Below, piece after piece: positions 4,883 through 61,114 of a DNA stretch of 64,000 nt; position 1 is the stretch's first letter; each line of letters begins with the position of its first letter. The notes beneath the pieces were generated by a model. It had not been told where the DNA came from. It was given only the letters and a program-made list of their open reading frames with translations, and ran no database searches. Source of the DNA: a candidate division WWE3 bacterium CG08_land_8_20_14_0_20_40_13. Lineage in GTDB: Bacteria; Patescibacteriota; WWE3; 0-14-0-20-40-13. Both the position numbers and the translations under genes were made by a program. The DNA is taken from contig PEYT01000004.1 in the NCBI GenBank assembly GCA_002774285.1, positions 4,345-68,344 on the forward strand, read 5' to 3'.

Positions 4883-5293
4883 GAAAGTGAGAATATGGGT
4901 CGTATCCGGGGTAGGCTTCAGTTTCTACGATAAGTAAACTAGTCACCAATCCGGAAAATTCCGTTTGCAACACACACCCGACAAGTTCTCTAGCAACTAC
5001 CAGAGAGGGACGAACAAAGAAATTTCGACCTAGGGGCGTAAATTGTCAGATTTTTTCCCATGATCCCCTCCAGTGATTTTTTGTGAACTCTCCACGCCCG
5101 CGTCAGACGCGGTGTGGCATCTTCCTCCGCTTTCGTCAAGTAGGACTTGACGAAAGTATTTATAGGATTCATCCACACCCCCCAGCAATGCTCGATGATG
5201 GGGCTTTCTCTAAATCTTGGAGAATCCATTGTGAATTTTATCACAACACTTCGCTAAACATAGGTTGGAAAAGTTGTTATAATAAAAGAGGAG

Positions 5294-5887
5294 GTGATGA
5301 TTATGATCTTTTTAATCCCGTTAATTGTTGTTATTGGCGTTGCTTTGTACGCTGTTTCGGTTTACAATTTTTTGGCTTCGGCTAAAGTTAGAATAAAAGC
5401 GGCCATTCAGGAGATTGGAAATCAGCTAAAGCGTCAGGCAGAGCTTATTCCAAATCTTATCGAAGCGACCAAAGGGTATATGAAGCACGAAAAGGAAATC
5501 TTTGAAATGCTTTCTAAGGCCCGCCAAAAAGTAGACTCCGCTGTAAAATCGGGAAAGGTTTCTGATATGGTTTTGGCAAACGACTCTTTGGTCAAGATGA
5601 TTCCGCAACTTACAGCAACATTTGAAAGTAATCCAGAAATTAAAGCCAGCGAAGTAGTAAAAGATTTAATGAGTAATCTTACCGATACTTCGGACAAGGT
5701 CTCTTACTCACGCAGACTTTTGATAGACTTGACTGCGGATTACAATGCAAAGCTTGTTACTGTCCCATCCAGCTTTGTGGCTGGTTTGTTTGGATTTAAA
5801 GCCGAAGAAGGGCTTAAGATGTTAGACGCAGGTTTGTCGCTAGAGGTTTCGGTAAACGAGGTAAAGACACCCAAAGTTAGTTTGTGA
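5294..5887 (+). CDS. lemA: LemA family protein
   Basis: N-terminal TM helix plus LemA-like helical domain (…NFLASAKVRIKAAIQEIGNQLKRQAELIPNLIEATKGYMKHE…). Confidence 0.7.
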   Translation: MMIMIFLIPLIVVIGVALYAVSVYNFLASAKVRIKAAIQEIGNQLKRQAELIPNLIEATKGYMKHEKEIFEMLSKARQKVDSAVKSGKVSDMVLANDSLVKMIPQLTATFESNPEIKASEVVKDLMSNLTDTSDKVSYSRRLLIDLTADYNAKLVTVPSSFVAGLFGFKAEEGLKMLDAGLSLEVSVNEVKTPKVSL

Positions 5888-5943
5888 TTAATAATTCGGG
5901 AGGATCCCGTTTCGGGATCCTCCCGAATTGGGATCCTCCCGGT

Positions 5944-6855
5944 TTTATGGCCCAAATAATCAATTTTTACGAACGGCAAAGTGAAAATATTGCCAAAACA
6001 TTTGGCCTTTTAATAGGTTTTGTGGTTCTTTTTTCTCTTTTCGCTTATTTTATAGGTTACATCTATAACGGCTCCCAGTATTTTTTGCCATTCGCTTTTC
6101 TTTTTTCGCTTGGCACTTCATTTGTCAGTTTCTATTTTAGTGAATCCATTGTTCTTGCCGCCTCCAAAGCACATAAAGCAAGTAAAAAAGAATATTTTAA
6201 TTTTTATACCGTGGTCGAAAACATCTCTCTTGGAACTGGACTTCCGATGCCAAAGCTATATGTGATAGATGATTCTGCCCCAAACGCCTTTGCAACCGGA
6301 AGAGATAAACATCACGCCTCGATCGTCGCGACAACGGGGCTTTTGGAATCACTTAATCGCCCGGAATTAGAAGGGGTCATGGCGCACGAACTTTCTCATG
6401 TAGGAAATAACGATATGTTACTTATGACGGTTGTCGCGGTTCTTGTCGGTACCGTTGTTATGGTCATGGATTGGTTTTGGCGGGTGCGGATTAGAGTGGG
6501 GGATGACGACGATAAAAAATCAGGCGCAATTTTTCTTGTTATCGCTTTAGTTTTCGCAATTTTAACACCCCTAATTGCCCAGCTTATTAAATTTGCGATT
6601 TCCAGACAAAGGGAGTTTTTGGCGGATGCAACGGCCGTTAAATACACAAGAAATCCTACCGGTTTAGTAAATGCTCTAATAAAGGTCGCAAGTTCAAAGG
6701 AACCTTTGGAAGTTGCAAATAAGGCGACCGCTCATTTATATTTTGAAAATCCCTTAGATAATGTGCAAGGAAGCGAAGGCGTCGGCTTTCTGAAGAATCT
6801 CTTTTCAACCCACCCACCGGTTTCCGAGCGCATCAAAAGACTTCAAGAAATGTAA
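5944..6855 (+). CDS. htpX: HtpX-like M48 zinc metalloprotease
   Basis: HELSH zinc motif, TM helices and an overall HtpX pattern. The start is taken at MAQIINF (5944). The 20 codons upstream in the track ORF (from 5884) are encoded by a palindromic repeat and are probably not translated. Confidence 0.7.
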   Translation, partial: FMAQIINFYERQSENIAKTFGLLIGFVVLFSLFAYFIGYIYNGSQYFLPFAFLFSLGTSFVSFYFSESIVLAASKAHKASKKEYFNFYTVVENISLGTGLPMPKLYVIDDSAPNAFATGRDKHHASIVATTGLLESLNRPELEGVMAHELSHVGNNDMLLMTVVAVLVGTVVMVMDWFWRVRIRVGDDDDKKSGAIFLVIALVFAILTPLIAQLIKFAISRQREFLADATAVKYTRNPTGLVNALIKVASSKEPLEVANKATAHLYFENPLDNVQGSEGVGFLKNLFSTHPPVSERIKRLQEM

Positions 6856-6881
6856 AGAATCCTTTAGCTGATACCATTTTC

Positions 6882-6910
6882 TCTTCCACTTCGGAAGTGG
6901 AAGATTTTTT
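6882..6910 (+). terminator. rho-independent terminator downstream of htpX
   Basis: 10-bp stem TCTTCCACTT / AAGTGGAAGA around a CGG loop, followed by TTTTTTGG. Confidence 0.6.
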
Positions 6911-6962
6911 GGTGCTACGAATCAAATCTCACCCAAAGGCAAGTCCTTGATTGTAGCAGGCG

Positions 6963-7226
6963 TCATAGACGATGTCTGTGATTTCTTCTTCTGGACGGCG
7001 TGGTGGTGGATGTCCGGTCTGTTGGAGTGATCCTCATGCCGTCCCAGCAAGCGAGCTTGAAGTTTACCCCGTTTGCTGTAGCAAGTGCTGACTGACCACT
7101 CACATCAAGAACCACCGCCTCAACATCCGTTTCCACATGTTGATCACTGGCGCCGGCGTGGATGATTACAACCTGTCCACGCTGTAGGTTTTCAATTACT
7201 GCCCCCCCCCGCGGCGTATCCGGTCA
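6963..7226 (-). CDS. small hypothetical ORF (87 aa), paralogous to 18996..19355; not in the supplied ORF track
   Basis: I translated it by hand: MTGYAAGGAVIENLQRGQVVIIHAGASDQ...NGVNFKLACWDG...; 88 codons with no in-frame stop. It shares the N-terminal M-x-x-x-AAGG and a VVLDVSGQSALATANGVNFKL ~ IVLGAITGHTCQGLGNLRVKI block with the 19355 ORF. It carries a C8 tract at 7202-7209. The region is GC-rich. Confidence 0.3.
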
Positions 7227-7317
7227 TTCCATGGCAAGGCATTTTAGTTCTCCTTTCTATCGGAAATATGAGATGAGCTGAAGCAGTGGTGGGACAAAGA
7301 TGATCCCAATTTGAGAT

Positions 7318-8322
7318 TTAAACTGTATTTATGGGATTGCCTTCGATAAAAGATTCAATATTCAAAACTGTAGTATCAAGAATTCTTTGCAACGCTTCTT
7401 TGGAATTAAAAGCGTTATGTGGGGTAACAATAACATTTGGCAAATTTACCAAAACATGATTTTGCGCCAATGTTAAAAGATTATGTCTTTCTGTTGTCCC
7501 TTTTGTTAATAGCTCCCGTTCCTCCGCCAAAAAAGATTCTTCCTCCAAGACATCAAGACCAGCTCCGGCGATCTTTCCTGATTTTAGAGCGTTAAAAAGA
7601 GCTTGCGTTTCAATTAGCCCTCCTCTTGCGGTATTTATCAAATACGTCCCGTCCTTCATTAAATTAATATTCTTGTCGTTTATTATATGTTTGGTTTCTT
7701 CACAGGAAGGGCAATGTAGAGTCACGATATCAGATTCCGCGAGAACTTCATTTAAAGATTTATAAGCAAAGCCTAGATATTTTTCTAAGTCCTTTTTGGG
7801 GAATGGGTCAAAGGCTATAGCATTCATGCCAAAACCTTTGGCAATTTTTATTACATTAACCCCAATTTTTCCGGTTCCAATAACTCCTAAGGTTTTTCCT
7901 TTTAGATCAAATCCTGTAAGACCGGTGGGATCAAACGATCCCATCTTGACCCGCATTGTCGATTCAATAATTCTTTTCATTAATGTCAAGATCAGGGCAA
8001 AAGTATGTTCAGCGACAGTATTAGATCCATACTCCGGTACATTGCAAACAGTAATGCCCTTTTTTTTGCAGTATTTAATATCAATATGATCAAACCCGGT
8101 AGATTGAGTAACAATAAGTTTTACTTTAGGAAGTTTTTCTAAGATCTCTTTGGAAAATTTGGAATAGACAAATCCCGAAAGTATTTCGCATTTTTCAACT
8201 AGTGTAATATCCACTTGGGAGACAGGTCTATCAAAAAGGACCAGTTCGCATTTATTGGGAAGCGCTTTTTGGAAAAACAATTTTTCTTTTTCGTCGGTGT
8301 CAAAAAAGGCAGTGCGGATCAT
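7318..8322 (-). CDS. D-isomer-specific 2-hydroxyacid dehydrogenase (D-lactate/phosphoglycerate dehydrogenase family)
   Basis: NAD-binding GxGxxG (GTGKIGVNV) and the catalytic-domain pattern of the D-2-hydroxyacid dehydrogenase family. Confidence 0.75.
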   Translation of the reverse strand: MIRTAFFDTDEKEKLFFQKALPNKCELVLFDRPVSQVDITLVEKCEILSGFVYSKFSKEILEKLPKVKLIVTQSTGFDHIDIKYCKKKGITVCNVPEYGSNTVAEHTFALILTLMKRIIESTMRVKMGSFDPTGLTGFDLKGKTLGVIGTGKIGVNVIKIAKGFGMNAIAFDPFPKKDLEKYLGFAYKSLNEVLAESDIVTLHCPSCEETKHIINDKNINLMKDGTYLINTARGGLIETQALFNALKSGKIAGAGLDVLEEESFLAEERELLTKGTTERHNLLTLAQNHVLVNLPNVIVTPHNAFNSKEALQRILDTTVLNIESFIEGNPINTV

Positions 8323-8346
8323 ATCAATTAGTATAGAATATATAGA

Positions 8347-8973
8347 ATGCGAAAGGAAATAGAAATTATAGAAATATTAAAAAAGCAAAGACCCGATGCT
8401 GTTTCAGAATTAAGTTGGATAACGCCTTTGGATTTTATGGTGGCGGTAATTCTTTCGGCGCAGGCGACAGATAAAGGTGTTAACAAGATTACCCCGAGAC
8501 TCTTTGAGAAATATAAAGCCGTTAATGATTATCTTAAGATATCGCTTGAAGAATTAGAGAAAGATATATCGTCGATTAACTTTTTTAGGACGAAAGCCAA
8601 AAGGATCAAAGAGGCCTGTAATGTCATCATGAATAAGTTTCATGGGAAAATTCCGCAAACAATGGAAGAATTATTGACGATTCCCGGACTTGGAAGAAAA
8701 AGCGCCAATGTCATTTTGATAAATGTTTTTGATAAAATTGAAGGTGTTGTAGTGGACACTCATATCACTAGAGTTTCTCAAAGATTGGGATTAACAAAAG
8801 AGAAAGACGCGGTAAAAATCGAAAGGGATTTAATGAAAATTTATCCCAAAATATATTGGGCAGCCGTCTCGCATTTGTTTGTGCTCCACGGGAGATATGT
8901 TTGTAAATCCAGAAAGCCGGATTGCGTGGGGTGTTTAATTAACAAGTATTGTCCTTGGTACAGGCCGAATTAA
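8347..8973 (+). CDS. nth: endonuclease III
   Basis: HhH-GPD fold with the C-terminal 4Fe-4S cluster loop C-x6-C-x2-C-x5-C (CKSRKPDCVGCLINKYC). Confidence 0.8.
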   Translation: MRKEIEIIEILKKQRPDAVSELSWITPLDFMVAVILSAQATDKGVNKITPRLFEKYKAVNDYLKISLEELEKDISSINFFRTKAKRIKEACNVIMNKFHGKIPQTMEELLTIPGLGRKSANVILINVFDKIEGVVVDTHITRVSQRLGLTKEKDAVKIERDLMKIYPKIYWAAVSHLFVLHGRYVCKSRKPDCVGCLINKYCPWYRPN

Positions 8974-18165: not shown

Positions 18166-18499
18166 TCGCAGGAAGCGAGTAAGCCAGATTCTGTTTTAGA
18201 CCTCAATCTATCTACGCTCCATCTTTCTGCCCATGTTGCTAAAAGCCAGCTTTTGAGGGCATATTCGTGGATTGCTACTGGTGGGATTGCCCGTTTCATA
18301 CCTTCGACATGCTTTCGCGAAGTCAAAGGGTCGTCTCTGTTGCTCTCAAGTCCTGTTAATTCAGAACTTGTTTTCCGCGCCTTTCGGTACGGGAACGCCA
18401 GCGGTTTTAACCGTCGGGGCTTGCGCCCCGTCCCATGCTTTTTTGTGTAGTCTGGACTTTCCTCCCGCCGTAGGCGGGTAGAGGCCCTGCTTCCTGCGG
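18166..18499 (-). ncRNA. rnpB: RNase P RNA (bacterial type)
   Basis: Minus-strand P4 5' strand GGGAGGAAAGUCCAGAC (plus 18454-18465) and P4 3' strand ACAGAAUCUGGCUUA (plus 18180-18194). P1 pairs 5' GCAGGAAGC with 3' GCUUCCUGC. P3 hairpin CCCGCCUACGGCGGG, a GGGGCGCAAGCCCC GNRA hairpin and the CAACAGAGA motif. The region is GC-rich and has no plausible CDS. Confidence 0.65.
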
Positions 18500-30598: not shown

Positions 30599-31762
30599 GT
30601 GGAAACATCAGATAAGAAAAAAGTGGTGGTGGGGATATCGGGCGGAGTAGATTCTGCGGTTTCGGCGTACCTTTTAAAAAAACAAGGTTATGAAGTTCTT
30701 GGTGTATATATGTGGTGTTACGGAAGTCATGACGAACATTGTCGGGCTCATCAAGACCGCGCCGATGCCATAAAAGTTGCCACGCATTTAGGAATTCCTT
30801 TTGAGATTTGGGATTTTGAAAAAGAATATTCCGAGAAAGTTTTAAAGTATTTTTATGATGAATATAATGCTGGATGTACTCCAAATCCCGATGTGGTTTG
30901 TAATAAAGAGATAAAGTTTGGAATGTTTTATAAAAGAGCGATTAAGAAGCGAGGTTTTGATTTTGTGGCAACAGGGCATTATGCTCGAGTGGTTGGGGGC
31001 ACATCGCAAATTAGGGCAGTGTCCGAATTCGGGCACTGCCCTAAATATCTGGCTTCTGGAAAAGATAAAACTAAGGATCAATCCTACTTTTTATATCGCA
31101 TTCGCTTGGAACAACTCTCCCACATCCTTTTTCCCGTCGGTGATTTAACAAAAAAAGAAGTCCGTCAAATTGCAAAAGAAGCAGGACTTCCCGTTTTTGA
31201 TAAACCCGATAGTCAAGGGGTTTGTTTTGTTGGGGAAGTATCAATGCGCGATTTCCTTAAAGGGAAAGTGGATTATAAAGAAGGGAATGTTGTTGATACA
31301 AAGGGGGAAGTGATCGGTCACCATACTGGTCTGCCGTTTTACACAATCGGTCAGCGCCGTGGGTTCACTTTGACGAAATATAAAGGATTGCCCATGTATG
31401 CGATTGGAAAAAATGCGGTGAATAACACCCTCATCGTTGGATGTGGGAAAGAGACTGAGGCGGAAAGTTTTAGAGTTGGAGATATTAATTGGCTCGTTTC
31501 TAATACGGGATCCTCCCGAAACGGGAGGATCCCGTATCAAAACTTAAGGGTTCGGATCAGACATCTTGGTAAATTAATCCCGTGTGATATATTATTTGAA
31601 AATTTGAAAAATAAAAATTCATTAAAAATTTCAAATTTGGAGGCCGTGCCCCCATCGCAGGTACGATGTAAATTAAAAATTCCCCAGCGGGGGGTAGCTC
31701 CTGGACAGTCAGCTGTTTTCTACCTTGATGACATTGTTATTGGCGGAGGCGTAATATTGTAG
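30599..31762 (+). CDS. mnmA: tRNA-specific 2-thiouridylase MnmA, with two in-frame palindromic insertions
   Basis: PP-loop SGGVDS, the KDQSYFLY motif and the C-terminal PGQSAVFY. The extra segments IRAVSEFGHCP and NTGSSRNGRIPYQ are encoded by perfect palindromes at 31011-31044 and 31503-31537. Confidence 0.8.
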   Translation: METSDKKKVVVGISGGVDSAVSAYLLKKQGYEVLGVYMWCYGSHDEHCRAHQDRADAIKVATHLGIPFEIWDFEKEYSEKVLKYFYDEYNAGCTPNPDVVCNKEIKFGMFYKRAIKKRGFDFVATGHYARVVGGTSQIRAVSEFGHCPKYLASGKDKTKDQSYFLYRIRLEQLSHILFPVGDLTKKEVRQIAKEAGLPVFDKPDSQGVCFVGEVSMRDFLKGKVDYKEGNVVDTKGEVIGHHTGLPFYTIGQRRGFTLTKYKGLPMYAIGKNAVNNTLIVGCGKETEAESFRVGDINWLVSNTGSSRNGRIPYQNLRVRIRHLGKLIPCDILFENLKNKNSLKISNLEAVPPSQVRCKLKIPQRGVAPGQSAVFYLDDIVIGGGVIL

Positions 31763-32861: not shown

Positions 32862-32947
32862 TGGTGGGCGAGAGAGGATTTGAACCTCCACGGATTTTAC
32901 TCCACTGGCTTCTGAAACCAGCCTGGCTACCATTACAGCACTCGCCC
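32862..32947 (-). tRNA. tRNA-Leu (anticodon CAG), CCA encoded
   Basis: I folded it by hand: a 7-bp acceptor stem GGGCGAG/CUCGCCC, an anticodon stem CUGGU/GCCAG around the loop UUCAGAA (anticodon CAG), a long variable arm, a T-loop GGUUCAAAUCC and a 3' ACCA. Confidence 0.85.
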
Positions 32948-33170: not shown

Positions 33171-34630
<1,460 letters not shown>

Positions 34631-45672: not shown

Positions 45673-46098
45673 ATGCCAACAATAAACCAGCTTGTAAGAA
45701 AGCGCAGAAAAAATTTAAAATCTCGAAAAGCTACACCAGCTTTAAAGTTGGTATATTCATCGTTACACAGGACAAAAAAGAGAGTAGCAAGTCCTTTTAA
45801 AAGAGGAGTGTGTCTTATTGTAAAGACGATGACGCCTAAAAAACCAAACTCGGCTTTAAGAAAAATTGCCAGAGTCCGTCTTTCCAATGGAGAAGAAGTT
45901 ACCACTTATATTCCCGGGGAAGGTCACGGACTTCAGGAGCACTCGGTAGTTTTGGTTAGAGGTGGTCGTGTTAAAGATCTTCCGGGTGTAAAGTACACTA
46001 TCGTCCGTGGGAAATACGATTTAGCAGGGGTTGCCAAACGAAAAACATCTAGAAGTATTTACGGTACAAAAAAGGATGCAGGAGTTAAAAAGATTTAA
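45673..46098 (+). CDS. rpsL: 30S ribosomal protein S12
   Basis: [10 protein letters not shown]...[10 protein letters not shown]...[12 protein letters not shown]. It starts 2 nt after the rpoC stop. Confidence 0.9.
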
Positions 46099-46103
46099 TC
46101 GTT

Positions 46104-46571
46104 ATGGCGAGAGGAGCAAAACCAACAAAAAACCCAATAGAAACCGACCAATTTTATAAATCAAAGGTCGTTACCCGCGTTGTTAACCGTCTTATGCTAG
46201 GCGGGGAAAAAAGCGTCGCCACAAAAATTATTTACGGGGTTTTGGAAAAAATTTCGGAGGATAAAAAAGAAGCCACCACAAAATTAGAAGAGGCGGTAAA
46301 AAATCTAATGCCTTCACAGGAAGTTCGGAGCCGTAGGGTAGGTGGTGCTACTTATCAAGTTCCGGTTCCTTTGCGTCATGATAGATCAGAAGCTTTGGCT
46401 ATAAGATGGCTGGTGGAAGCAGCACGCGCAAAAAAAGGAAAACCCATGGCCCAAAGACTTTTTGAAGAAGTAACACTTGCCGCTAAAAAAGAGGGAGTTG
46501 CTTACAAAAAGAAAGAAGATACTCTGCGTATGGCTGACGCCAACAAAGCCTTTGCGCATTTTAAGTGGTAG
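46104..46571 (+). CDS. rpsG: 30S ribosomal protein S7
   Basis: 155 aa with an S7 signature. Confidence 0.9.
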   Translation: MARGAKPTKNPIETDQFYKSKVVTRVVNRLMLGGEKSVATKIIYGVLEKISEDKKEATTKLEEAVKNLMPSQEVRSRRVGGATYQVPVPLRHDRSEALAIRWLVEAARAKKGKPMAQRLFEEVTLAAKKEGVAYKKKEDTLRMADANKAFAHFKW

Positions 46572-46698
46572 ACAGTTTCTTATCCAAAGTAATAGTTTGA
46601 CCAAGTCCTTTCTACCTTCAAATTTACCAATTAACAAACCTAATAAGTACCCCCCCCTCAATGTTCTGTGCTACTTGACAACCGCGTCTTGTTGCAAT

Positions 46699-46722
46699 AT
46701 CCTGTACATATATGTACAGGAT
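46699..46722 (+). promoter_or_regulatory. perfect 24-bp palindrome ATCCTGTACATATATGTACAGGAT overlapping the abiEi start codon; putative AbiEi autoregulatory operator
   Basis: The two 12-nt halves are exact reverse complements. The ATG of the 46712 ORF lies inside it. Confidence 0.4.
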
Positions 46723-47254
46723 AGACACTCTTATTAAGTTGGATAGGAAGCTGTATCATACAAACGATCTGGCTATATGTTGGAAAATAATTAACAAAAA
46801 TACCTTATACACGGCAATTAAGCGGTATATAAAGAGGGGAATTTTGATTCCGGTTAAAAAAGGTTTATACTCCACCATTCCTTTAGTGCAACTTGATCGG
46901 CAAAACCTTGGAATTGCTCTTATCCATAAGTATTGCTACTTAAGCACGGAATCTGTATTTGTTAAAAACGGGATCATCACCCAAAACAACTTTTACACAA
47001 CTTTTATTAGTAGTGTTTCTGCCAAAATAGCAGTTTCCGATTGGCAATTTCTTTATCGAAAATTGAAAGACGAGTTTCTTTATAACCAAGAGGGTATTTA
47101 TAGCGAGAACGGCGTTTATATGGCGACGACGGAAAGAGCCGTTGCCGATATGTTGTATTTTAATCCAACATACCATTTTGACCTTTTAGAAAATATCGAT
47201 TTTAACAAAGTAAAAGATATCCAAAAAAAGGTTGGTTATCCATGCAGTATTTAA
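46712..47254 (+). CDS. abiEi: AbiEi-family antitoxin (type IV TA, wHTH)
   Basis: N-terminal ...LYTAIKRYIKRGILIPVKKGLYST... matches the AbiEi_4 pattern (..L.RLV..G.L.RV.RGVY). 13-nt overlap with the downstream nucleotidyltransferase-toxin gene. Confidence 0.55.
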   Translation: MYRIDTLIKLDRKLYHTNDLAICWKIINKNTLYTAIKRYIKRGILIPVKKGLYSTIPLVQLDRQNLGIALIHKYCYLSTESVFVKNGIITQNNFYTTFISSVSAKIAVSDWQFLYRKLKDEFLYNQEGIYSENGVYMATTERAVADMLYFNPTYHFDLLENIDFNKVKDIQKKVGYPCSI

Positions 47255-47970
47255 GACCGGAAGATACAATTCACAAATCTTATTTAAATAGATTACTAAT
47301 AGAGATAGTAGATAATCCAATATTATCATCCAACTTAGCGTTTAAAGGAGGAACATGCGCACAAATGCTGCGCTTTTTGGATAGGTTTTCTGTGGATTTG
47401 GACTTTGATGTAATAACAATGACGGATGAATCTAAATTAAGAAACGAGTTCCGAAATATTTTTAATCATTTAGGGCTAACTATGATTAAAGAATCGACTC
47501 CAGCCCTATTTTTTCAGCTTAAATATGCAAGCGAAACTGGGAAACGAAGCGCAATAAAGACAAGTGCGAGTATTATAAAAATAAAAACCAACGAGTATAA
47601 AATTCAATATTTATCGGAAATTGATAGATTAGCTAACTGTCAAACAATAGAAGCGATGTTTGCAAATAAATTAGTTGCCATAATCGATCGGTACAAGTTG
47701 CATAAAAGTATAGCCGGGCGTGATATCTACGATACGCACCATTTTTTTATTCAAGGATATTCATACAAAGATGAAGTAATCCTAGAAAGAACGGGGCAAG
47801 AGCCAAAAGCATACCTAAAATATTTAATAGAATTTATAAAAGACAAGGTTACTCAAACAATTGTAAATGAAGATTTAAATTCCCTATTACCAGCAGATAA
47901 ATTTCAGCAAATTAGAAAGGTTTTGATTCCAGAAACTTTGTCTTTTCTTGCAAGAGAGGTCGGGAAGTAA
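47242..47970 (+). CDS. abiEii: AbiEii/AbiGii-family nucleotidyltransferase toxin (DUF1814)
   Basis: FKGGTCAQMLRFLDRFSVDLDFDV is the GGT...R.SeDlDf signature of AbiEii toxins. Confidence 0.6.
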   Translation: MQYLRPEDTIHKSYLNRLLIEIVDNPILSSNLAFKGGTCAQMLRFLDRFSVDLDFDVITMTDESKLRNEFRNIFNHLGLTMIKESTPALFFQLKYASETGKRSAIKTSASIIKIKTNEYKIQYLSEIDRLANCQTIEAMFANKLVAIIDRYKLHKSIAGRDIYDTHHFFIQGYSYKDEVILERTGQEPKAYLKYLIEFIKDKVTQTIVNEDLNSLLPADKFQQIRKVLIPETLSFLAREVGK

Positions 47971-48036
47971 TTAATCGTCGTCGGAAAAATCCGCGTTGAC
48001 ATCACATTTTATTTTATTTAGTATAGTTTTAAGGAG

Positions 48037-48396
48037 ATGAAAGAGGATTTACTGCAAACCAAATATCTTCTTGTTGTGCTAATTGTTCTTGTTGCTTTAG
48101 GTTTTATCGCTTTTTCATTTCAAACTAAACCCCCTTCCACACCAGCTATCACTCCCACCACAACCAAACCATCAAATTAAGTAGAACCATCTTCCGATCC
48201 AACTGCCAATTGGAAAACATATCAAAATGAAACATATAATTTTTCGGCGGTATATAAATTAAATAATGTATAATCATATACCATCTCTCCAATCTGGATT
48301 TGACGAGCAACTACTAGAAGAAAATGCTCGAACTTTTTTCGAAACTACCCTTTCTACCTTTCGTTTCCTAGATCCTCCGAAGCTTTAAGCGAAGGA
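48037..48396 (+). pseudogene. degraded gene for a small membrane-anchored/secreted Pro/Thr-linker protein
   Basis: SD AAGGAG plus ATG at 48037 gives MKEDLLQTKYLLVVLIVLVALGFIAFSFQTKPPSTPAITPTTTKPSN, then TAA. Protein-like sequence continues in frame (VEPSSDPTANWKTYQNETYNFSAVYKL) and then in a shifted frame (IPSLQSGFDEQLLEENARTFFETTLSTF). Confidence 0.3.
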
Positions 48397-48420
48397 GGAC
48401 AAATTTACCAATTAAAAAAC

Positions 48421-48675
48421 CTAATAAATATCTCCTCTATTGTCGATTAGATAGATGATTACTGTTTTGTTTCTGTCGTCTTTTACAAAAAGTACTATAA
48501 TATCTCCAATACGCAGTCTAAACATACCCTGATATTTTCCAGTAAGTTTTTTTATATCTCCGCGATAGGGAAAATAGGATAAATCCAAAATAGCATTTGT
48601 AATTCTAACAAAGGAGTTTTTATCAATCTTATCAAGGAATTTTTCTGCTTGTTTCTTTAAGATAACTTTGTACAT
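48421..48675 (-). CDS. relE: RelE/ParE-family type II toxin
   Basis: MYKVILKKQAEKFLDKIDKNSFVRITNAILDLSYFP..GDIKKLTGKYQGMFRLRIGDIIVLFVKDDRNKTVIIYLIDNRGDIY. The start is taken at the internal M of the track ORF. Confidence 0.7.
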   Translation of the reverse strand: MYKVILKKQAEKFLDKIDKNSFVRITNAILDLSYFPYRGDIKKLTGKYQGMFRLRIGDIIVLFVKDDRNKTVIIYLIDNRGDIY

Positions 48676-48970
48676 AGTCGACGCATAATTTTTCCGAAAC
48701 AAATTTTTCAAAAGCGATTCCCATATCGCTTGCGGTTTCCATTTCTTTTTCCAGATCTTTAGTATCAACAAAATCCATAAGTTTTTCGTAAGCAAATGAG
48801 GATTTTTCAAAATATTCAGGAGACACCATAACGGCTAAATACGCATTGCCTTTGGAGATAGCAATAGGGGTTCCTAAGGTTTTCATATGGGTCACTATTT
48901 CCTTGGTTTTATAACGCAAGTCGGTTGTAGTTGCAAGTTTCGTAAGTTTTTGAGTAATCATAATAGTCAT
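48632..48970 (-). CDS. Phd/YefM-family antitoxin
   Basis: ...TTTDLRYKTKEIVTHMKTLGTPIAISKGNAYLAVMVSPEYFEK... follows the Phd/YefM N-terminal pattern. It lies upstream of and overlapping the toxin gene. The start codon is uncertain (M25 or M28 of the track ORF). Confidence 0.55.
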   Translation of the reverse strand: MTIMITQKLTKLATTTDLRYKTKEIVTHMKTLGTPIAISKGNAYLAVMVSPEYFEKSSFAYEKLMDFVDTKDLEKEMETASDMGIAFEKFVSEKLCVDYVQSYLKETSRKIP

Positions 48971-49059
48971 AATTCCATACATAATTATGACTAAAATCAA
49001 TACCAAAAAATATCTGTTGACAGGGGTTTTGGGATAGTACAATATCTAATCATTATTGG

Positions 49060-49356
49060 ATGTTGTTATCTGCCCCTATGCCATCTAAGACTAGGAAAGT
49101 GGTCTCTAAAAAGAAGGTCGTAAGGAGAGTCCCCAAAGTAAAGTCTCCTTCGTGTTGTGTTAGTCAGGATGCGTTAACCAAGTACCTGCCGTTTATGGTA
49201 GGGTTAGCGTTTTTTGTGCTATTTTTGGCCGTAGTCGCCTATGCGGTTGCTTTAAAATCGCAGTGGCTTGCTAGCCAAGATAATGTGGGATTTTCCGCCC
49301 CAAGCGCGCCTGTAGTTAATACAGCAAAACCACTTCCCGCGCTTCCAAAGAAATAG
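49060..49356 (+). CDS. small Lys-rich single-TM membrane protein
   Basis: 98 aa with a basic N-terminus, one TM helix and a Pro/Ala-rich C-terminus. Confidence 0.35.
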   Translation: MLLSAPMPSKTRKVVSKKKVVRRVPKVKSPSCCVSQDALTKYLPFMVGLAFFVLFLAVVAYAVALKSQWLASQDNVGFSAPSAPVVNTAKPLPALPKK

Positions 49357-49850
49357 ATCCTATACAACCCTCTTTAAAAGAGAGACTTGGTATGGAATAA
49401 GTTGGTGAACTAGATTATTCGCCGATTTTTTCTATACCACCGCCGTGAGCAAAGAAAGGAGAGCATGCCTTGGGGTTTTGTAACCGCATCTTACCCAAGG
49501 CAAAAGGTCAAAAAATTCAACAAAGACCTTTCAAGAAGATGGTTTCAATGGCGCGTGCCGAAAGGGGGATTCGTGTCACGGAGATACATTGACAAACAGG
49601 GTTTGCAGGTTACAGTTTCTCCGAAGTGTGGATCTTCTGGGTTTTTCCGGAATAGCATTCGTGATGCCTTCAGTGGTTTTCTTTGTCACAGCTACTGGAG
49701 GCAAACTCACGAACGCCGCCAATGTCGTCTTGGAGCGGGTGGTTAGATTATAGGTGTTATACTTGAACATGGCGTTTTGAGGAAATGGAAATCCTCCGCC
49801 AGGTTGTTTTTTGTTACATTATTAACATGTGAAAAACCACATTTGACGCG

Positions 49851-50654
49851 ATGATATTTATGGAAAAAGTAGTAAAAGTTACAGCAACAGATAATCTCAA
49901 AGAATCAATTAAATCGGCTGTTGAAGGGCTTGGTGGGTTTAAGAAGTTTATCTCGGCTGGCGATGTGGTTTTTGTAAAACCAAACTGCAATACGACAGAT
50001 CCATTTCCCGCTTCCTCCGATCTCGAATTTTTAAAAGCCCTTACGGATCTTCTATATAAAAATGGCGCTAAGCTTGTGGCTATCGGCGATTCTTCCACAA
50101 TTACTTTAAATACCAGAAGGGTTATGGAACAAAAAGGACTTTTTAAACTTTTGGAAATGGAAGACCCTCCGCGGATTTGTGTTTTTGAAGAAGGAAAATG
50201 GATGGTAACAAAAATTAAAAATTCAAAGTTCAAATCTCAAGTATCCTTACCTGAAATTTTGACAAGGGTAGATAAGGTGATTTATGTACCGTGCTTAAAA
50301 ACTCACAAGCAGGCACGGTTTACAGGAGCGTTAAAATTATCCGTTGGCTTTGTAAAGCCTTTTGAGCGGATATCCATGCATTTAAAAAATTTAGAGGAGA
50401 AAGTTGCAGAAATAAATTCAGTTATAAAATGCGATTTGGTGATAATGGATGCAAGAAAGTGTTTTTTTAATGGCGGTCCAAGTGAGGGTGAAGTGCGGGA
50501 ACCAAATTTTATACTGGCTTCAAAGGGTCGTGTGGCAGTTGATATCGAGGGAATTAGAATAATTCAAGGTTTTAAGGGAAACTCGCTTTTGCATCTAAAA
50601 GATCCCAAAGATCTCCCTCAGATTAAAAGAGCTTTAGAAATGGGACTTAGTTGA
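49851..50654 (+). CDS. DUF362-domain protein
   Basis: VVFVKPNCNT... and the overall DUF362 pattern. Confidence 0.5.
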   Translation: MIFMEKVVKVTATDNLKESIKSAVEGLGGFKKFISAGDVVFVKPNCNTTDPFPASSDLEFLKALTDLLYKNGAKLVAIGDSSTITLNTRRVMEQKGLFKLLEMEDPPRICVFEEGKWMVTKIKNSKFKSQVSLPEILTRVDKVIYVPCLKTHKQARFTGALKLSVGFVKPFERISMHLKNLEEKVAEINSVIKCDLVIMDARKCFFNGGPSEGEVREPNFILASKGRVAVDIEGIRIIQGFKGNSLLHLKDPKDLPQIKRALEMGLS

Positions 50655-50699
50655 GAATGAAATCGGGTTCTACCTTTAAGGGTTTCACCCGAACCGTTT

Positions 50700-51419
50700 C
50701 TAAAGGCCTTTCGAATAAACATTGTTTAATGCAATTCCCACAGAAACTGCTAGGTTTAACGAATCAACTTTATCGGATTGCGGTATTTTTACTCGCGTTT
50801 TAAACCCCTTTTCAAGTTCTTCAAGACCGGATGATTCGTTTCCAAATACAAGGCTTGCGGGTTTTGCAAATTCGATTTTTGATAAATTTTCCGATCCAGT
50901 CGTTTGAAATGCGTAGAGGTTTCTTTCTGGAAAGAATTCTTTGTATTTTTTGAAACTTTCAAAAAGCTGAATGTTAAGACTAAATATCGCGCCCATAGAC
51001 GCTCTTATGGTCTCTGGTTTAAAAATATCTACAGCAGGAGTTATTATTGCAAGGTCAGAAAAATTAAATGCCAGCATTGACCGCGCTATCGTTCCCAGAT
51101 TTCCAGAATCTTTTGGATTAACTAAAACTATATGGTTACTCTGACCATCAAGAGACATAGTGTATTTTTTAAATACTCCAGCCACAAAGCAATTATCTTT
51201 AATGGAAATTTTTTGAATGAGTCTATCGTTTTGGTTAAGTTTTATTTTGTTTTCACCGGCTAATCTATGGATTATCTCAAAACCATTGCTACCTGATAAT
51301 TTTGAATGAGTAATTATTTTAATAACAGATGTTGGCCTGTTTTTAATAAGCTCAATTGTTGGATAGGACCCAAAGGTAAAAGAGTAGTCAAATTTTTTGT
51401 TGTACCTCGAAAATTCCAT
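50700..51419 (-). CDS. SpoU/TrmH-family RNA 2'-O-methyltransferase
   Basis: The C-terminal motifs LVFGNESSGL and IPQ..DSLNLAVSVGIAL match the SPOUT methylase signature. The start is taken at MEFSRY. Confidence 0.7.
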   Translation of the reverse strand: MEFSRYNKKFDYSFTFGSYPTIELIKNRPTSVIKIITHSKLSGSNGFEIIHRLAGENKIKLNQNDRLIQKISIKDNCFVAGVFKKYTMSLDGQSNHIVLVNPKDSGNLGTIARSMLAFNFSDLAIITPAVDIFKPETIRASMGAIFSLNIQLFESFKKYKEFFPERNLYAFQTTGSENLSKIEFAKPASLVFGNESSGLEELEKGFKTRVKIPQSDKVDSLNLAVSVGIALNNVYSKGL

Positions 51420-51484
51420 AGTGACATTGTACCAAAGATGCGACATTTTGTAGTATGTGAATCTTAAATTGAGATCCTCCCTTT

Positions 51485-52018
51485 TTAATTTAAATCTTTT
51501 TTTGGAAGACGGGAGAGGAGGTGAGTGTACAAAAGAAGATTAGAAAGGACGGACAGGGGCACAGTCACAATTAATCCAACACCAAGTGCGAGAACTCCCA
51601 AGATATTAATCCCTAAAATAGCAAGACCAAAAAGAATAAGTTGCCATTTAATTCCTTGCGTCATTTTTCCGCTTAGATTAAAAGCCTCTTTTATTCCAAT
51701 TTCTTTATCAATAAAAAGCAACTCGCTAAAACTATATTTGATTGCCCAGTAAATTCCGGGAACGACAAGAAGGATAAATCCAAAAGCCACAAGAAGCCCG
51801 TACAGAAAAGATACAGCAAAGTACCTAAGAAGATATTTAACAGTTAATTGGGGGAAAATTGTCTTCCACGAAAGTTTCTTCTCGCCTCGGACCAACGACA
51901 AAAGAGTCCGCATAAAGCCGATTTGAATAATACAGGATAGATAAATAGAAATTAAGACAAAACCGAATGACCAAAATCCAAAAAGGACTTTGCTTCCAAC
52001 ATTTCCGCTTTTGCTCAC
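51485..52018 (-). CDS. polytopic membrane protein (DUF975-like?); N-terminus uncertain
   Basis: The track ORF starts at a GTG. Protein-like TM sequence continues another ~40 codons upstream without ATG, GTG or TTG, so the gene may be 5'-truncated or use a rare start codon. Confidence 0.35.
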   Translation of the reverse strand: MSKSGNVGSKVLFGFWSFGFVLISIYLSCIIQIGFMRTLLSLVRGEKKLSWKTIFPQLTVKYLLRYFAVSFLYGLLVAFGFILLVVPGIYWAIKYSFSELLFIDKEIGIKEAFNLSGKMTQGIKWQLILFGLAILGINILGVLALGVGLIVTVPLSVLSNLLLYTHLLSRLPKKDLN

Positions 52019-52357
52019 CTCTTCAACAATATTGGAGATAACGCTTAACCCAAATTGGATTCCGATAAGTATTAAGAAGAACTTAATAAGAAATTTCCAA
52101 TTGGTCTTTAAAAGAATCCACGAATATGAAATTGTCTTTTTGACCTGTATTTTACGGTTTTTTGTGATTATGTCCTTGCATTATAATGCCATATCTGATA
52201 ATAATGCAATACCCCTTTAAGGGAGTTTTTTATAACAAGATTTAGAGAAGACCACGGGCTTGCCCGTGGATAAATTTTCCAATAAATTTCTTTCGCCAAA
52301 GGCGAAAGGCGTTATATAGTACCACGCGTTCGCGTGTGGGAGTCTATTGCATATAGT

Positions 52358-54466
52358 ATGGAAGACAAAGAATTTGGAGAAATTCCATTAGACAGAATTA
52401 GAAATATTGGTATTATTGCTCATATTGACGCCGGAAAAACTACAACTACCGAGGCGGTGCTTTTTCATACCGGAAAAACTCATAAAATTGGAAAAATTGA
52501 CGCCGGTGATACGCAGATGGATTGGATGGAGCAGGAAAGAGAAAGAGGAATTACAATAACTTCTGCCGCGACCACTTGTTTTTGGCGCCGCCGTTTTGGT
52601 TCATATCACGAGGTTTTTCGTATTAATATCATAGATACCCCGGGTCATGTTGATTTTACCGCAGAAGTGGAGCGGTCATTACGCGTTTTAGATGGCGCGG
52701 TTGTAGTATTTGATGGAAAAATGGGAGTAGAGCCACAATCCGAAACAGTGTGGCGCCAAGCCAATAAATATCGTGTGCCAAGAATTTGTTTTATTAATAA
52801 AATAAACCAGATCGGTGGAGATTTTAATAAAAGTCTGGCTTCAATAAGAGATCGCTTAAGCCCCAAAGCTTTTCCGATAGTTTTGCCTATCGGTTTTGAA
52901 AAGGATCTTCATGGATTAATAGACCTTACTCGGATGAAGGCATATACATACAAAGACTATCTTCAGGACGATCTTGAAGAAGAGGATATTTCGGAAGATT
53001 TAATGGAAATAGCTAAAAAAGCTAGATTGGAAATGATAGAAACAATTGCCGAATTTGACGACGCGGTTTTAGAGAAATTTTTAAATGGTCAAGAAATAAA
53101 TAATGAAGAAGTATTAAGAACTCTTAGAAAAGCAACTTTGTCCGGTCAGGTTTATCCGGTTTTTGGAGGAGATGGTCGTGGTGTTATTGTCAAAGCTCTT
53201 CTGGATTTTGTTGTAAACATTCTTCCTTCACCACTGGATCTTCCGCCTGTAAAGGGAATTAATCAAAAAACAGGGGCGGAAGAAATTAGGAAACCGGAAA
53301 CTAACGAGCAGTTTTCGGCGCTTGCTTTTAAAGTGCAAACGGATCCTTATGTAGGCCGCTTAACTTTTTTTAGAGTTTATTCCGGAACATTGCAATCGGG
53401 ATCTTATGTACTTAATGCAACAAGAGGGGAACGGGAAAGATTTAGCCGTATTGTTTTAATGCATGCAAATAACCGCGAGGATGTAACGCAGGTAAAGGCT
53501 GGGGAAATTGCCGCTGTAGTTGGACTTAAAAATACTTTTACCGGAGATTCCATCTGTAACGAAGAACACCCAATTCTACTTGAAGCGATCTCTTTTCCGG
53601 AACCAGTTATCTCTATGTCTATCGAACCAAAAACTAAACAAGATCAGGAAAAAATGGGGATGGCGCTTAAAAAGCTTTCGGAAGAAGATCCTACCTTTAA
53701 AATAAAATCAAATGCCGAAACCGGACAAACGCTTATTGCCGGAATGGGCGAGCTTCATCTTGAGATATTAGTTGATAGGATGAAAAGAGAATTTAAAGTA
53801 GAGGCCGCTACAGGCGCTCCGCAGGTGGCTTACAAAGAAACTATCAAAAAGACCGTGGAACAGGAAGGAAAATATATCAGACAATCCGGAGGTCGTGGTC
53901 AGTATGGTCATGTATGGTTAAGGCTGGAACCTAGAAATCCCGGAGAAGGTTTTATATTTGAAGACGAAATTGTTGGCGGATCCATTCCAAAGGAGTATAT
54001 TCCAGCCGTGGAAAAAGGAGTAAAAGAGGCTTTGGAAAGTGGTGTAATTGCAGGTTACCCGGTAATTGATGTGCTGGTTGCGCTTTATGACGGATCTTTT
54101 CATGAAGTCGACTCATCGGAAATTGCTTTTAAAATTGCCGCGATAGAAGCTTTTAAAGATGGGGCGCGGAGGGCAGATCCGGTGTTACAGGAGCCTATTA
54201 TGAAAGTGGAAGTAACGGTTCCGGATCAGTTTATGGGAGATGTCATTGGCGATTTAAGCTCAAAGCGTGGTAGAATAGAAGGAACTGAAAGCAAAGCAAA
54301 TCTAACTGTGATAAAATCCCTCGTGCCGCTCGCGGAGCTTTTTGGGTATTCCACGATTTTACGGAGTATTACACAGGGGCGGGGAAGCTTTAATATGGAG
54401 CCAAGTCACTATCAGGAGGTTCCGGGAAATGTTGCTTTAAAGATAGCAGAAGGAAGGAAAAAGTAA
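52358..54466 (+). CDS. fusA: elongation factor G
   Basis: [23 protein letters not shown] and the full EF-G domain set. The start is taken at MEDKEF, 8 codons inside the track ORF. Confidence 0.9.
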
Positions 54467-61065: not shown

Positions 61066-61114
61066 TTTCGCCTTTGGCGAAATATAAATTTAGGATTTTT
61101 TCTTTAATCTTGTT

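Follow-up and report, generated by a model that had tools for sequence, protein, structure and literature searches.

The genes rpsL, rpsG, fusA and tuf form the str operon, the most conserved translational operon, and the locus considered here raises the question of what stands between rpsG and fusA when this operon is found broken in a reduced genome. The stretch under study (the window) comprises 64,000 nucleotides of contig PEYT01000004.1 from candidate division WWE3 bacterium CG08_land_8_20_14_0_20_40_13, a member of the candidate phyla radiation (CPR). Two toxin–antitoxin (TA) modules, a number of other genes and a GC-rich non-coding stretch lie in the gap between rpsG and fusA of the window. 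A first-pass annotation of this DNA had regarded the whole gap as one accessory island set into an intact str operon. Is this gap indeed an island, or is it an inherited part of the genome? In our opinion, it is probably an old cluster specific to one WWE3 subclade, with a backbone that is conserved and one or more slots that vary, rather than a recent island. The GC-rich stretch, which had merely been inventoried before, contains a conserved structured RNA and is the most unusual element of the locus.

The gap between rpsG and fusA in the window and in relatives

The genes that frame the gap and those of its conserved part are as follows.

45673–46098: rpsL, preceded by rpoC, the upstream neighbour (open reading frame (ORF) listing)
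46104–46571, plus strand: rpsG (ribosomal protein S7), the left anchor (ORF listing)
49060–49356, plus strand: small membrane protein with a Lys/Arg-rich N-terminal tail, one transmembrane helix and a conserved KSQW motif (ORF listing; start at 49060 or 49078)
49860–50654, plus strand: DUF362 protein, 264 amino acid residues (aa) (Pfam, 8e-37)
50700–51419, minus strand: SpoU/TrmH-family RNA 2'-O-methyltransferase, convergent with DUF362 (Pfam, 1.6e-33)
51485–52171, minus strand: DUF975/UPF0259 membrane protein, longer than the listed ORF (Pfam/NCBIfam and tblastn)
52252–52269 and 52290–52308, no strand: two perfect GC-rich hairpins in the spacer between DUF975 and fusA (sequence reading)
52358–54466, plus strand: fusA (elongation factor G, EF-G), the right anchor (ORF listing and homologue length)

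The fusA ORF as listed opens at GTG 52334, and the start at ATG 52358 gives a protein of 702 aa; since the closest EF-G homologues also consist of 702 aa, ATG 52358 is the more likely start codon. With rpsG ending at 46571 and fusA starting at 52358, the insert therefore comprises positions 46572–52357, or about 5.8 kb. Tuf, rpsJ and rplC follow fusA in the ORF listing.

The usual distance between the two genes was estimated using 80 non-CPR loci with about 50% identity to the RpsG protein, taken among the matches listed, 72 of which had enough sequence downstream of rpsG to judge the position of fusA. In 60 of these 72 diverse bacterial loci, fusA was located within 400 nt of rpsG, so the view that rpsG is normally followed directly by fusA holds. 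The median gap was 40 nt and the largest was 3.7 kb; hence, a gap of 5.8 kb is unusual in general. Compared with the canonical str operon, the window keeps the order and orientation rpoB-rpoC-rpsL-rpsG ... fusA-tuf-rpsJ-rplC, but 5.8 kb with genes of both strands separate its rpsG from its fusA, and in the subclade of the window this separation is inherited. With such a gap, the usual co-transcription of fusA-tuf and rpsL-rpsG is precluded.

The inherited character of the gap follows from a comparison with related loci, here designated by L numbers; contigs of four related lineages were reached through their DUF362 and EF-G homologues. In L081, whose EF-G is 90% identical to that of the window, rpsG is followed by a gene of a 574-aa protein without known function, the small-protein gene, a 450-nt spacer, DUF362 and SpoU (minus strand), and then by PGA_cap fragments, NUDIX, 131-aa and DUF975 genes (the last three on the minus strand) and fusA. 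In L085/L086 (EF-G 83%), the order is rpsG, a 169-aa protein gene, NYN (minus), a 48-aa protein gene (minus), a 194-aa protein gene, the small-protein gene, a 415-nt spacer, DUF362, SpoU (minus), PaaX_M (minus), a 208-aa protein gene (minus), DUF975 (minus) and fusA. By tblastn, the small protein, SpoU and DUF975 were confirmed to be orthologous. In L118 (DUF362 70%), rpsG, the small-protein gene and DUF362 stand directly in a row. L115 (EF-G 85%) has no rpsG in the 3.1 kb upstream of fusA on its contig; in the same metagenome-assembled genomes, an EF-G gene of the L115 type is found eight genes from a small-protein gene of the L118 type, according to the numbering of GenBank accessions, and L115 and L118 thus belong to one lineage. 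More distant relatives (L116/L117, EF-G 71%) have cofD in front of fusA and no rpsG within 10 kb of fusA. In the four lineages with an EF-G identity of 83–90%, rpsG and fusA are thus apart or fusA has no neighbouring rpsG; all four have the small-protein gene and DUF362, and three have SpoU and DUF975 as well. The split between rpsG and fusA is therefore ancestral to the WWE3 subclade of the window, and the part at 49.06–52.36 kb is a conserved backbone.

That the whole 5.7 kb could be a single accessory or mobile element, possibly concerned with phage defence and recently put into an intact rpsL-rpsG-fusA-tuf operon, is suggested by the adjacency of rpsG and fusA in most of the baseline loci, by the presence of two TA modules whose genes have the lowest GC content in the window, and by the mixture of strands and pseudogene debris in the insert. 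We consider this improbable. L081 and L085/L086 have orthologues of the right 3.3 kb, taken initially as part of the island, at the same place and in the same order, an outcome that the first-pass annotation itself had named as counting against its view; L118 also has the small protein and DUF362 in place, and rpsG and fusA are unlinked altogether in L116/L117. SpoU and DUF975 have a similarly low GC content despite their conservation, and no population contig shows the locus without the insert. No integrase, recombinase or transposase was found among the ORFs of the insert in Pfam and NCBIfam scans, and no tRNA or transfer-messenger RNA (tmRNA) gene was detected at the insert by ARAGORN, the sole tRNA gene of the window being at 32862. 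Element-wide terminal repeats are likewise absent from the insert; the one long direct repeat, D1, bounds only 46619–48435. Relatives carry the same genes at the same place for 49.06–52.36 kb and different ones for 46.6–49.05 kb, and absence from the same site in close relatives is thus true only for the latter part. The idea of a single island is therefore largely refuted for 49.06–52.36 kb; what is left of it for 46.6–49.05 kb is a variable slot that acquired TA cassettes.

The locus is, accordingly, a str-operon variant permanently split in one WWE3 subclade. What looked like a TA island splitting the str operon is better described as an inherited cluster specific to the subclade, in which a single tolerant slot has received TA cassettes. 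A reduced CPR genome, too, can carry a permanent break in the best conserved operon of translation, and this break can go on to serve as a landing pad.

All the backbone genes had been recognised in the first-pass annotation (DUF362, SpoU, a membrane protein and a small Lys-rich membrane protein), and these assignments were supported. The small membrane protein is represented by just five clusters among 5.8 billion proteins, all from the subclade of the window. The DUF362 protein shows 58–73% identity to the top matches among those listed, several of which are named as CPR bacteria. This family belongs to the same Pfam clan as the N-terminal domain of LarA (PMC11770544), and no solved structure is detectable for it by sequence. 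In other CPR lineages (L083, L084, L087, L088 and L090), DUF362 homologues with 62–65% identity have another neighbourhood and no RNA. There, an uncharacterised ORF of 104–173 aa always stands directly before DUF362, and genes of a DUF4258 protein and a PD-(D/E)XK protein often follow it, which suggests that the DUF362 module is conserved independently of the str locus. The best NCBIfam match of SpoU is RlmB, under the cutoff of that family. The homology of DUF975 to the L081 protein extends from 52171 to 51488, with 58% identity over 228 aa; no ATG, GTG or TTG is present upstream of 52018 on the minus strand, so that the homology reaches 153 nt past the first canonical start. Either the start codon was lost, or a non-canonical one is used, or the protein is N-terminally shortened.

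The structured RNA upstream of DUF362

The first-pass annotation had mentioned about 500 nt of GC-rich non-coding sequence. Such a stretch does occupy 49357–49859, with a GC content of 0.43–0.46 versus 0.40 on average in the window and 0.33–0.34 in the TA genes. The following elements were recognised in it.

49388–49812, plus strand: unannotated structured RNA of about 425 nt (fold z-score, homology and covariation)
49388–49543, plus strand: 5' domain of the RNA (covariation and alifold)
49766–49812, plus strand: intrinsic terminator of the RNA (hairpin 49766–49805 and U6 at 49807–49812)

The predicted fold of 49357–49850 on the plus strand has an energy of −165 kcal/mol versus −132 kcal/mol for shuffled sequences (z = −6.0), and the minus strand gives z = −3.0. 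Homologous spacers are present in L081/L082 and L085/L086. Nucleotide identity between the window and L081 is 74.5% for the RNA, 77.8% for rpsG, 77.5% for fusA, 70.7% for DUF362 and 61.5% for SpoU. The conservation of the RNA is, therefore, similar to that of rpsG and fusA and exceeds that of the flanking protein genes DUF362 and SpoU. The GenBank locus tags COT49_00650 and COT49_00655 are consecutive, and hence no RNA gene is annotated in the spacer.

The 5' domain is composed of a long hairpin P1 (49388–49439) and a closing stem of 5 bp (49442–49446 with 49539–49543), which encloses a purine-rich and nearly invariant strand (CCACCGCCGYGAGC...AAAGGAG), a P2 hairpin (49466–49502) with a nearly invariant 19-nt loop and a P3 hairpin (49503–49531). 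In alignment A4, the domain has 43 pairs with 98.2% of cells paired; 16 of the 43 pairs are changed on both sides, versus 1–2 in each of six slid controls, and none of 500 shuffles reached the observed covariation value. Conserved G-U pairs such as 67–162 and 125–153 assign the RNA to the plus strand. In P2, seven of nine stem pairs are swapped between the clades, and the loop keeps 16 of its 19 bases. The CAUCUU of this invariant loop could pair with an invariant AAGAUG after P3 and form a pseudoknot, which would partly compete with the closing stem.

Each of the three lineages also has a terminator hairpin at the 3' end. The terminators of L081 and L085 differ in sequence from that of the window, also carry U6 and end 2–4 nt before the ATG of DUF362, and the window terminator ends 47 nt before it. 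The remaining 3' 250 nt contain the conserved blocks UCUCC, UAGCAUU, CACGARCG.CG.CAA and CGU.UUGGA and many mutually compatible purine-rich and pyrimidine-rich segments. Their structure was sought with 36 MAFFT parameter sets combined with RNAalifold, pairwise alifold and an anchor-based helix matcher. An invariant GAACGYCG can form 8 bp with the 5' strand of the terminator, UGGCGUUU, in the window and L081, and this pairing is a possible antiterminator.

Could all this be a decaying protein gene or a neutral spacer, with the structure as an artefact of a GC-rich sequence and few genomes? We consider this very improbable. The window does contain an ORF of 93 codons (49465–49746) after AAAGGAG, which resembles a Shine–Dalgarno (SD) sequence, there are just 3–4 distinct sequences of the RNA, and the helices proposed for the 3' domain lack covariation support. 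However, the ORF has no start codon in L081 or L085, and its frame is not conserved across the lineages, so a protein-coding function was rejected. The compensatory changes and almost complete pairing of the 5' domain, set against the slid controls, also speak against this explanation, as does the conservation of the spacer, which is on a par with rpsG and fusA, and so do the terminators, kept by completely different sequences in the two clades.

The RNA matches no described family; it resembles a leader in its position and the large orphan non-coding RNAs in its size. In Rfam 15, no model reached its gathering threshold, and a search of 6.1 kb was negative at E ≤ 5; at E ≤ 10, the window, L081 and L085 copies gave noise alone (12–18 bits, E = 1.8–9). 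ARAGORN revealed neither tRNA nor tmRNA in the stretch, which has no T-arm or CCA end, and tmRNA, including its permuted form, was rejected. A T-box was also rejected, because GGGUGGU is present in the window copy alone and the Rfam search was negative. A tRNA with a group I intron has been described for Patescibacteria (PMC13011429); no tRNA exon features were found here, and this candidate was discarded. The stretch is unlike the 16S rRNA or anything else in the window, which eliminates an rRNA fragment and a mimic of a ribosomal-protein-binding site. Finally, about 10 GGA motifs counted by eye in the window copy are near the chance level, with just 4–5 of them conserved, and a CsrB-like GGA sponge was thus rejected. 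Full-text searches of the literature gave no paper pairing WWE3 with noncoding RNA, DUF362 with an RNA motif or Katanobacteria with toxin–antitoxin, and papers on the candidate phyla radiation and structured RNA contained none on this locus or RNA. A metagenome scan with the invariant block of the RNA followed by nhmmer yielded 24 loci, namely 20 GC-rich chance matches and 4 already known contigs, all from the same three lineages, and no true homologue was found among the viral contigs of IMG/VR.

What may this RNA do? The small-protein gene, the RNA and DUF362 are all on the same strand. Upstream of the small-protein gene, TTGACA (49017) and TACAAT (49038) are separated by a 15-nt spacer. Only 25–35 nt, without any promoter-like site, lie between the stop codon of this gene and P1. 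In L081 and L085, the space between the terminator and ATG has no room for a promoter or SD sequence. The small-protein ORF overlaps the called DUF362 gene in L118, which lacks the RNA. Transcription of DUF362 would thus have to pass the terminator of the RNA. We suppose that the promoter-like site at 49017 would drive an operon of the small membrane protein, the RNA and DUF362, in which the RNA would be transcribed as the spacer between the two genes. The folded 5' domain would be a three-way junction whose invariant P2 loop can pair with the invariant AAGAUG downstream, and it would decide whether the terminator abutting the start codon of DUF362 forms. In the manner of a riboswitch or an attenuator, the RNA would thereby fix the ratio of DUF362 output to that of the upstream gene. 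Co-transcription, switching and a ligand are putative parts of this scheme.

An intercistronic leader of the attenuator or riboswitch type that gates DUF362 is thus our tentative interpretation, held at somewhat less than even chance. Like known leaders, the RNA immediately precedes a gene on its coding strand (here DUF362), contains a structured and covarying domain whose loops are invariant, ends in a hairpin and U-tract by the start codon and, in two lineages, has an alternative pairing with the 5' strand of the terminator. The differences are that the RNA is located between two genes of the operon instead of at its 5' end, matches no Rfam family, shows no conserved antiterminator in L085 and has no SD sequence between the terminator and ATG.

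Several observations weigh against this interpretation. At about 400 nt (about 425 nt in the window), the leader would be several times longer than typical riboswitches with aptamer and platform. The candidate antiterminator pairing was not found in L085. The helices P4, P4b, P5 and Ha of the 3' domain and an aligned terminator are not claimed, since they show no double changes and 72% pairing. Just three independent lineages of the RNA occur in the searched collections, which makes the statistics thin. Taken together, the promoter-like sites do not exceed chance expectation, with 18 found versus 18.3 in shuffled sequence. L118 and other CPR lineages carry DUF362 without the RNA, which is therefore dispensable and could equally be a stand-alone stable RNA. 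By EF-G distance, the window and L081 are followed by L115/L118 and then by L085; since L115/L118 falls between two lineages with the RNA, its loss in L118 is most simply explained as secondary, and such a loss fits a regulatory, dispensable role.

A stand-alone RNA that acts in trans or in a ribonucleoprotein (RNP), ends at its own terminator and perhaps interacts with the Lys/Arg-rich cytoplasmic tail of the small membrane protein, as OLE does with OapA, seems to us rather unlikely, though it accounts for a number of features. A length of about 425 nt, a high GC content in an AT-rich genome, the z-score of −6.0 and an own terminator are typical of stable non-coding RNAs; the RNA always adjoins the gene of a small basic membrane protein on the same strand, and its sequence-invariant loops suggest tertiary or protein contacts. 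OLE, ROOL, GOLLD, raiA and HEARO are similarly hundreds of nucleotides long, GC-rich against their genomes, complex and conserved in structure and narrow in range, and OLE with OapA also adjoins a small membrane protein gene. On the other hand, a separate promoter is missing from the short interval before P1, the terminator abuts the ATG of DUF362, so that transcription of this gene would have to run through the RNA, and the L118 lineage has kept the small protein without having the RNA. There is no similarity to OLE or any other Rfam family in sequence or structure, even at E ≤ 10, and in contrast to these classes the RNA is confined to three lineages of one WWE3 subclade, with none found in viral contigs.

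Whichever of the two roles applies, the 425-nt element may be the first member of a new class of large structured RNAs from a WWE3 (Katanobacteria) subclade alone, which either gates DUF362 or takes part in a membrane RNP; as a whole, we regard this explanation as possible and short of probable. The RNA is conserved, covarying and absent from Rfam, and it comes from a phylum with almost no experimentally known regulatory RNAs. It is situated directly upstream of DUF362, whose close homologues are numerous among other CPR genomes. Should the RNA act as a sensor, the function of DUF362 could be approached through it; should it be a stable RNP RNA, it is an addition to the short list of large bacterial non-coding RNAs. 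Its distribution in three lineages limits its general importance.

The variable slot and its toxin–antitoxin modules

Between rpsG and the small-protein gene (46.6–49.05 kb), the content differs in every lineage compared. In the window, this slot holds two TA modules and decayed paralogous secreted-protein genes.

46596–46634, plus strand: relic consisting of the last 12 codons (FDQVLSTFKFTN and the stop codon) of the first secreted-protein paralogue, the remainder being deleted (C-terminus of the L085 169-aa and 194-aa proteins)
46650–46657, no strand: C8 homopolymer tract (sequence reading)
46675–46723, plus strand: abiE promoter-like site TTGACA-17-TATCCT with an overlapping palindrome (sequence reading)
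46712–47254, plus strand: abiEi, type IV antitoxin and transcriptional regulator, 180 aa (PADLOC, NCBIfam)
47242–47970, plus strand: abiEii, DUF1814-type nucleotidyltransferase toxin, 242 aa (Pfam, PADLOC, PDB alignment)
48037–48412, plus strand: pseudogene of the second secreted-protein paralogue (tblastn against the L085 169-aa and 194-aa proteins and three-frame translation)
48421–48675, minus strand: parE/relE-family toxin, 84 aa (Pfam PF05016)
48632–48961, minus strand: Phd/YefM-like antitoxin candidate (Pfam PF02604 below cutoff; start uncertain: 48961, 48970 or further upstream)
48947–49010, no strand: imperfect inverted repeat over the phd start and promoter region, putative operator (repeat search)

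Every feature named in the first-pass annotation is present in the sequence at or near the coordinates given there, and its proposal to check AbiE and RelE by profile searches led to both assignments being upheld. The abiE operon is located between the two secreted-protein relics, and the phd-like/parE operon between the second relic and the small-protein gene.

The AbiEi/AbiEii type IV pair was supported by PADLOC for both proteins and by Pfam PF08843 for the toxin. AbiEi matches the PADLOC model with 2.7e-26 over residues 8–170; the NCBIfam TAA_AbiEi match (2.4e-11) is under its equivalog cutoff, and that of Pfam PF13338 (AbiEi_4) has an E-value of just 0.099. For AbiEii, PF08843 gave 3.5e-17 and 63.6 bits versus a cutoff of 22.5 bits, and PADLOC gave 3.2e-25. 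Alignment with PDB entries 4o8s and 4ok0 (about 5e-4) covers the KGGT...RFS.DLDFD and RD.YD motifs, and the catalytic motifs of nucleotidyltransferases (hG[GS] ... [DE]x[DE]) are intact, KGGT and DLDFD being aligned with those of 4o8s. The antitoxin gene abiEi is directly upstream of abiEii with a 13-nt overlap. At the left edge of the insert, where a C8 tract and an operator-like palindrome had been indicated, both are present: the tract at 46650–46657 and a perfect 26-nt palindrome, TATCCTGTACATATATGTACAGGATA, at 46698–46723, which covers the ATG of abiEi (46712) and the −10-like hexamer. It is plausibly the AbiEi operator, and the abiE mRNA is probably leaderless. By analogy with known type IV systems, AbiEi would act as repressor of the abiE operon by binding to the palindrome at the promoter and start codon, and would neutralise the nucleotidyltransferase AbiEii, and the TA activity of the pair is inferred from this family membership.

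In comparison with the AbiE systems of Lactococcus and Streptococcus agalactiae, which are related to the DUF1814 MenT toxins, the window pair is likewise bicistronic with the antitoxin gene first, its AbiEii is a DUF1814 nucleotidyltransferase with KGGT...DLDFD, its AbiEi has the size typical of the family, and the palindrome over the promoter is consistent with the negative autoregulation of this family. It differs in that both proteins are divergent (Pfam AbiEi_4 non-significant and NCBIfam under the cutoff), the start codon is covered by one perfect 26-nt palindrome as the putative operator, and the pair resides in a CPR bacterium, within the str locus.

The second module had been designated a RelE/ParE-Phd/YefM pair on the minus strand. 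This is well founded for the toxin, which gave 7.2e-6 and 26.9 bits with PF05016 versus a cutoff of 23 bits, over profile positions 1–88 of 89, and 0.014 with the NCBIfam model TIGR02385 RelE_StbE. The Phd part is weak: PF02604 gave 1.4e-3 and 18.8 bits versus a cutoff of 29.8 bits, and no match was found in NCBIfam or PADLOC. The ORF lies directly upstream of the toxin gene with a 44-nt overlap; its assignment as a Phd-like antitoxin is weak by sequence and fits the context. The arms of the inverted repeat (48947–48974 and 48983–49010) are 28 nt long each and 79% complementary. If the module works as type II TA modules do, which is an analogy, the Phd-like protein would neutralise ParE and autorepress at this repeat. 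Known ParE/RelE-Phd/YefM modules are similar in the toxin family (the 84-aa protein is above the PF05016 cutoff), in the upstream, overlapping antitoxin gene with a Phd-like N-terminal region and in the inverted repeat at the promoter; the window antitoxin differs by its score under the Pfam cutoff, its uncertain start and an overlap longer than usual. Sequence alone does not separate a ParE-type toxin (gyrase poison) from a RelE-type one (mRNA interferase) in the window. Both TA pairs belong to known families, in which they are divergent but otherwise ordinary. In population contigs, a single-A insertion was observed at 49004 (A-run 49000–49009), upstream of or within the phd-like ORF, which changes the called length of the phd-like protein from 136 to 140 aa.

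The secreted-protein gene noted previously as degraded is indeed a pseudogene. It retains a signal peptide and a Thr/Pro linker but is disrupted by a stop codon in frame at 48178 and by an internal deletion or frameshift with a large loss of sequence, and its C-terminal LSTFRF...KFTN, followed by the stop, is broken by a small palindromic insert. A promoter-like site (47996–48024) precedes it, and population contigs contain a single-A insertion in a homopolymer run at 48271 within it. Two paralogous secreted proteins are encoded in L085, and the C-terminus of each reads ...LSTFKFTN before the stop. The direct repeat D1 (36 nt, 46619–46654 and 48400–48435, 89% identity) was considered as a target-site duplication or transposition footprint and rejected, as it is the common 3' end of the two paralogous secreted-protein genes. 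The C8 tract as a phase-variation switch was also rejected, its length being invariant in three near-identical population contigs covering it (L121–L123).

A family of palindromic elements on GGATCCTCCCGAA occurs at 5895–5943 and 31508–31532, with a related copy at about 48348–48392. Seven matches with no more than 2 mismatches were counted versus 1.4 expected, and the related hairpin splits the 3' end of the secreted-protein pseudogene. These elements look like repetitive extragenic palindromic (REP) or miniature inverted-repeat transposable element (MITE)-like repeats in a reduced genome.

The GC content of the TA region is 33–34%, the lowest in the window, versus a mean of 39.8 ± 3.0%. Seven contigs from other samples are 99.6–99.9% identical to the window, and both TA cassettes were found in every population contig covering their positions (L121–L126); the cassettes are fixed in the population of the window. 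Both are absent from the L081, L085 and L118 loci. The slots of the relatives carry an NYN nuclease, a protein with a PaaX/Cas2-like domain, a NUDIX protein and proteins without known function, and a second variable slot, between SpoU and DUF975, is empty in the window. As a part of the explanation proposed here as a whole, it is probable that two self-contained TA cassettes settled in a slot that decayed in the lineage of the window.

An alternative to selfish addiction cassettes adrift in a tolerant slot is that both modules act against phage by abortive infection and were selected for this at the site. The original description of AbiE was that of an abortive-infection system, matches to the PADLOC AbiE models are strong, and both operons are intact in every population contig covering them, from six samples. 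At the same time, there are no further defence genes nearby, the NYN, PaaX-like, NUDIX and unknown proteins of the relatives give no clear defence signal, and the pseudogenisation of the neighbouring genes suggests a landing pad under low constraint. We find selection for anti-phage action rather unlikely. The first-pass suggestion that the insert is a variable and possibly phage-defence-related part holds for the lineage-specific character of the left 46.6–49.05 kb, and the cargo of the relatives gives no clear support to its defence part. The reading of the slot as a defence hotspot was dropped, as this cargo is not recognisably defensive, a point that also tells against assigning the TA modules a protective role here.

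Other features of the window

The GC-rich hairpins in the leader of fusA may be insulating terminators or repeat elements. A perfect hairpin TTTCGCC-WWW-GGCGAAA has copies at 52291–52307 and 61066–61082, with 0.05 expected by chance.

Ribosomal protein L3 (56149–56580, plus strand) has merely 141–143 aa in the lineage of the window and also in L081, L085 and L116; bacterial L3 typically consists of about 210 aa. The 458-nt space between rpsJ and rplD of L115 contains no called L3 gene. In L118, rpoC (5093–8657) was called as two overlapping ORFs of 577 aa and 624 aa, which could be a frameshift, an assembly error or a truly split beta' subunit.

A complete 16S rRNA gene is located at 33172–34630 (plus strand), with no 23S or 5S gene in the remaining 29 kb downstream, and the rRNA genes appear to be unlinked in this genome. 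The tRNA-Leu(CAG) gene (32862–32947) lies directly upstream of the 16S gene on the opposite strand. For the RNase P RNA at 18168–18497 (minus strand), the best Rfam model, with lower-scoring matches of the same Rfam clan suppressed, is that of archaeal RNase P and not a bacterial type, with 86.9 bits against a gathering score of 84.

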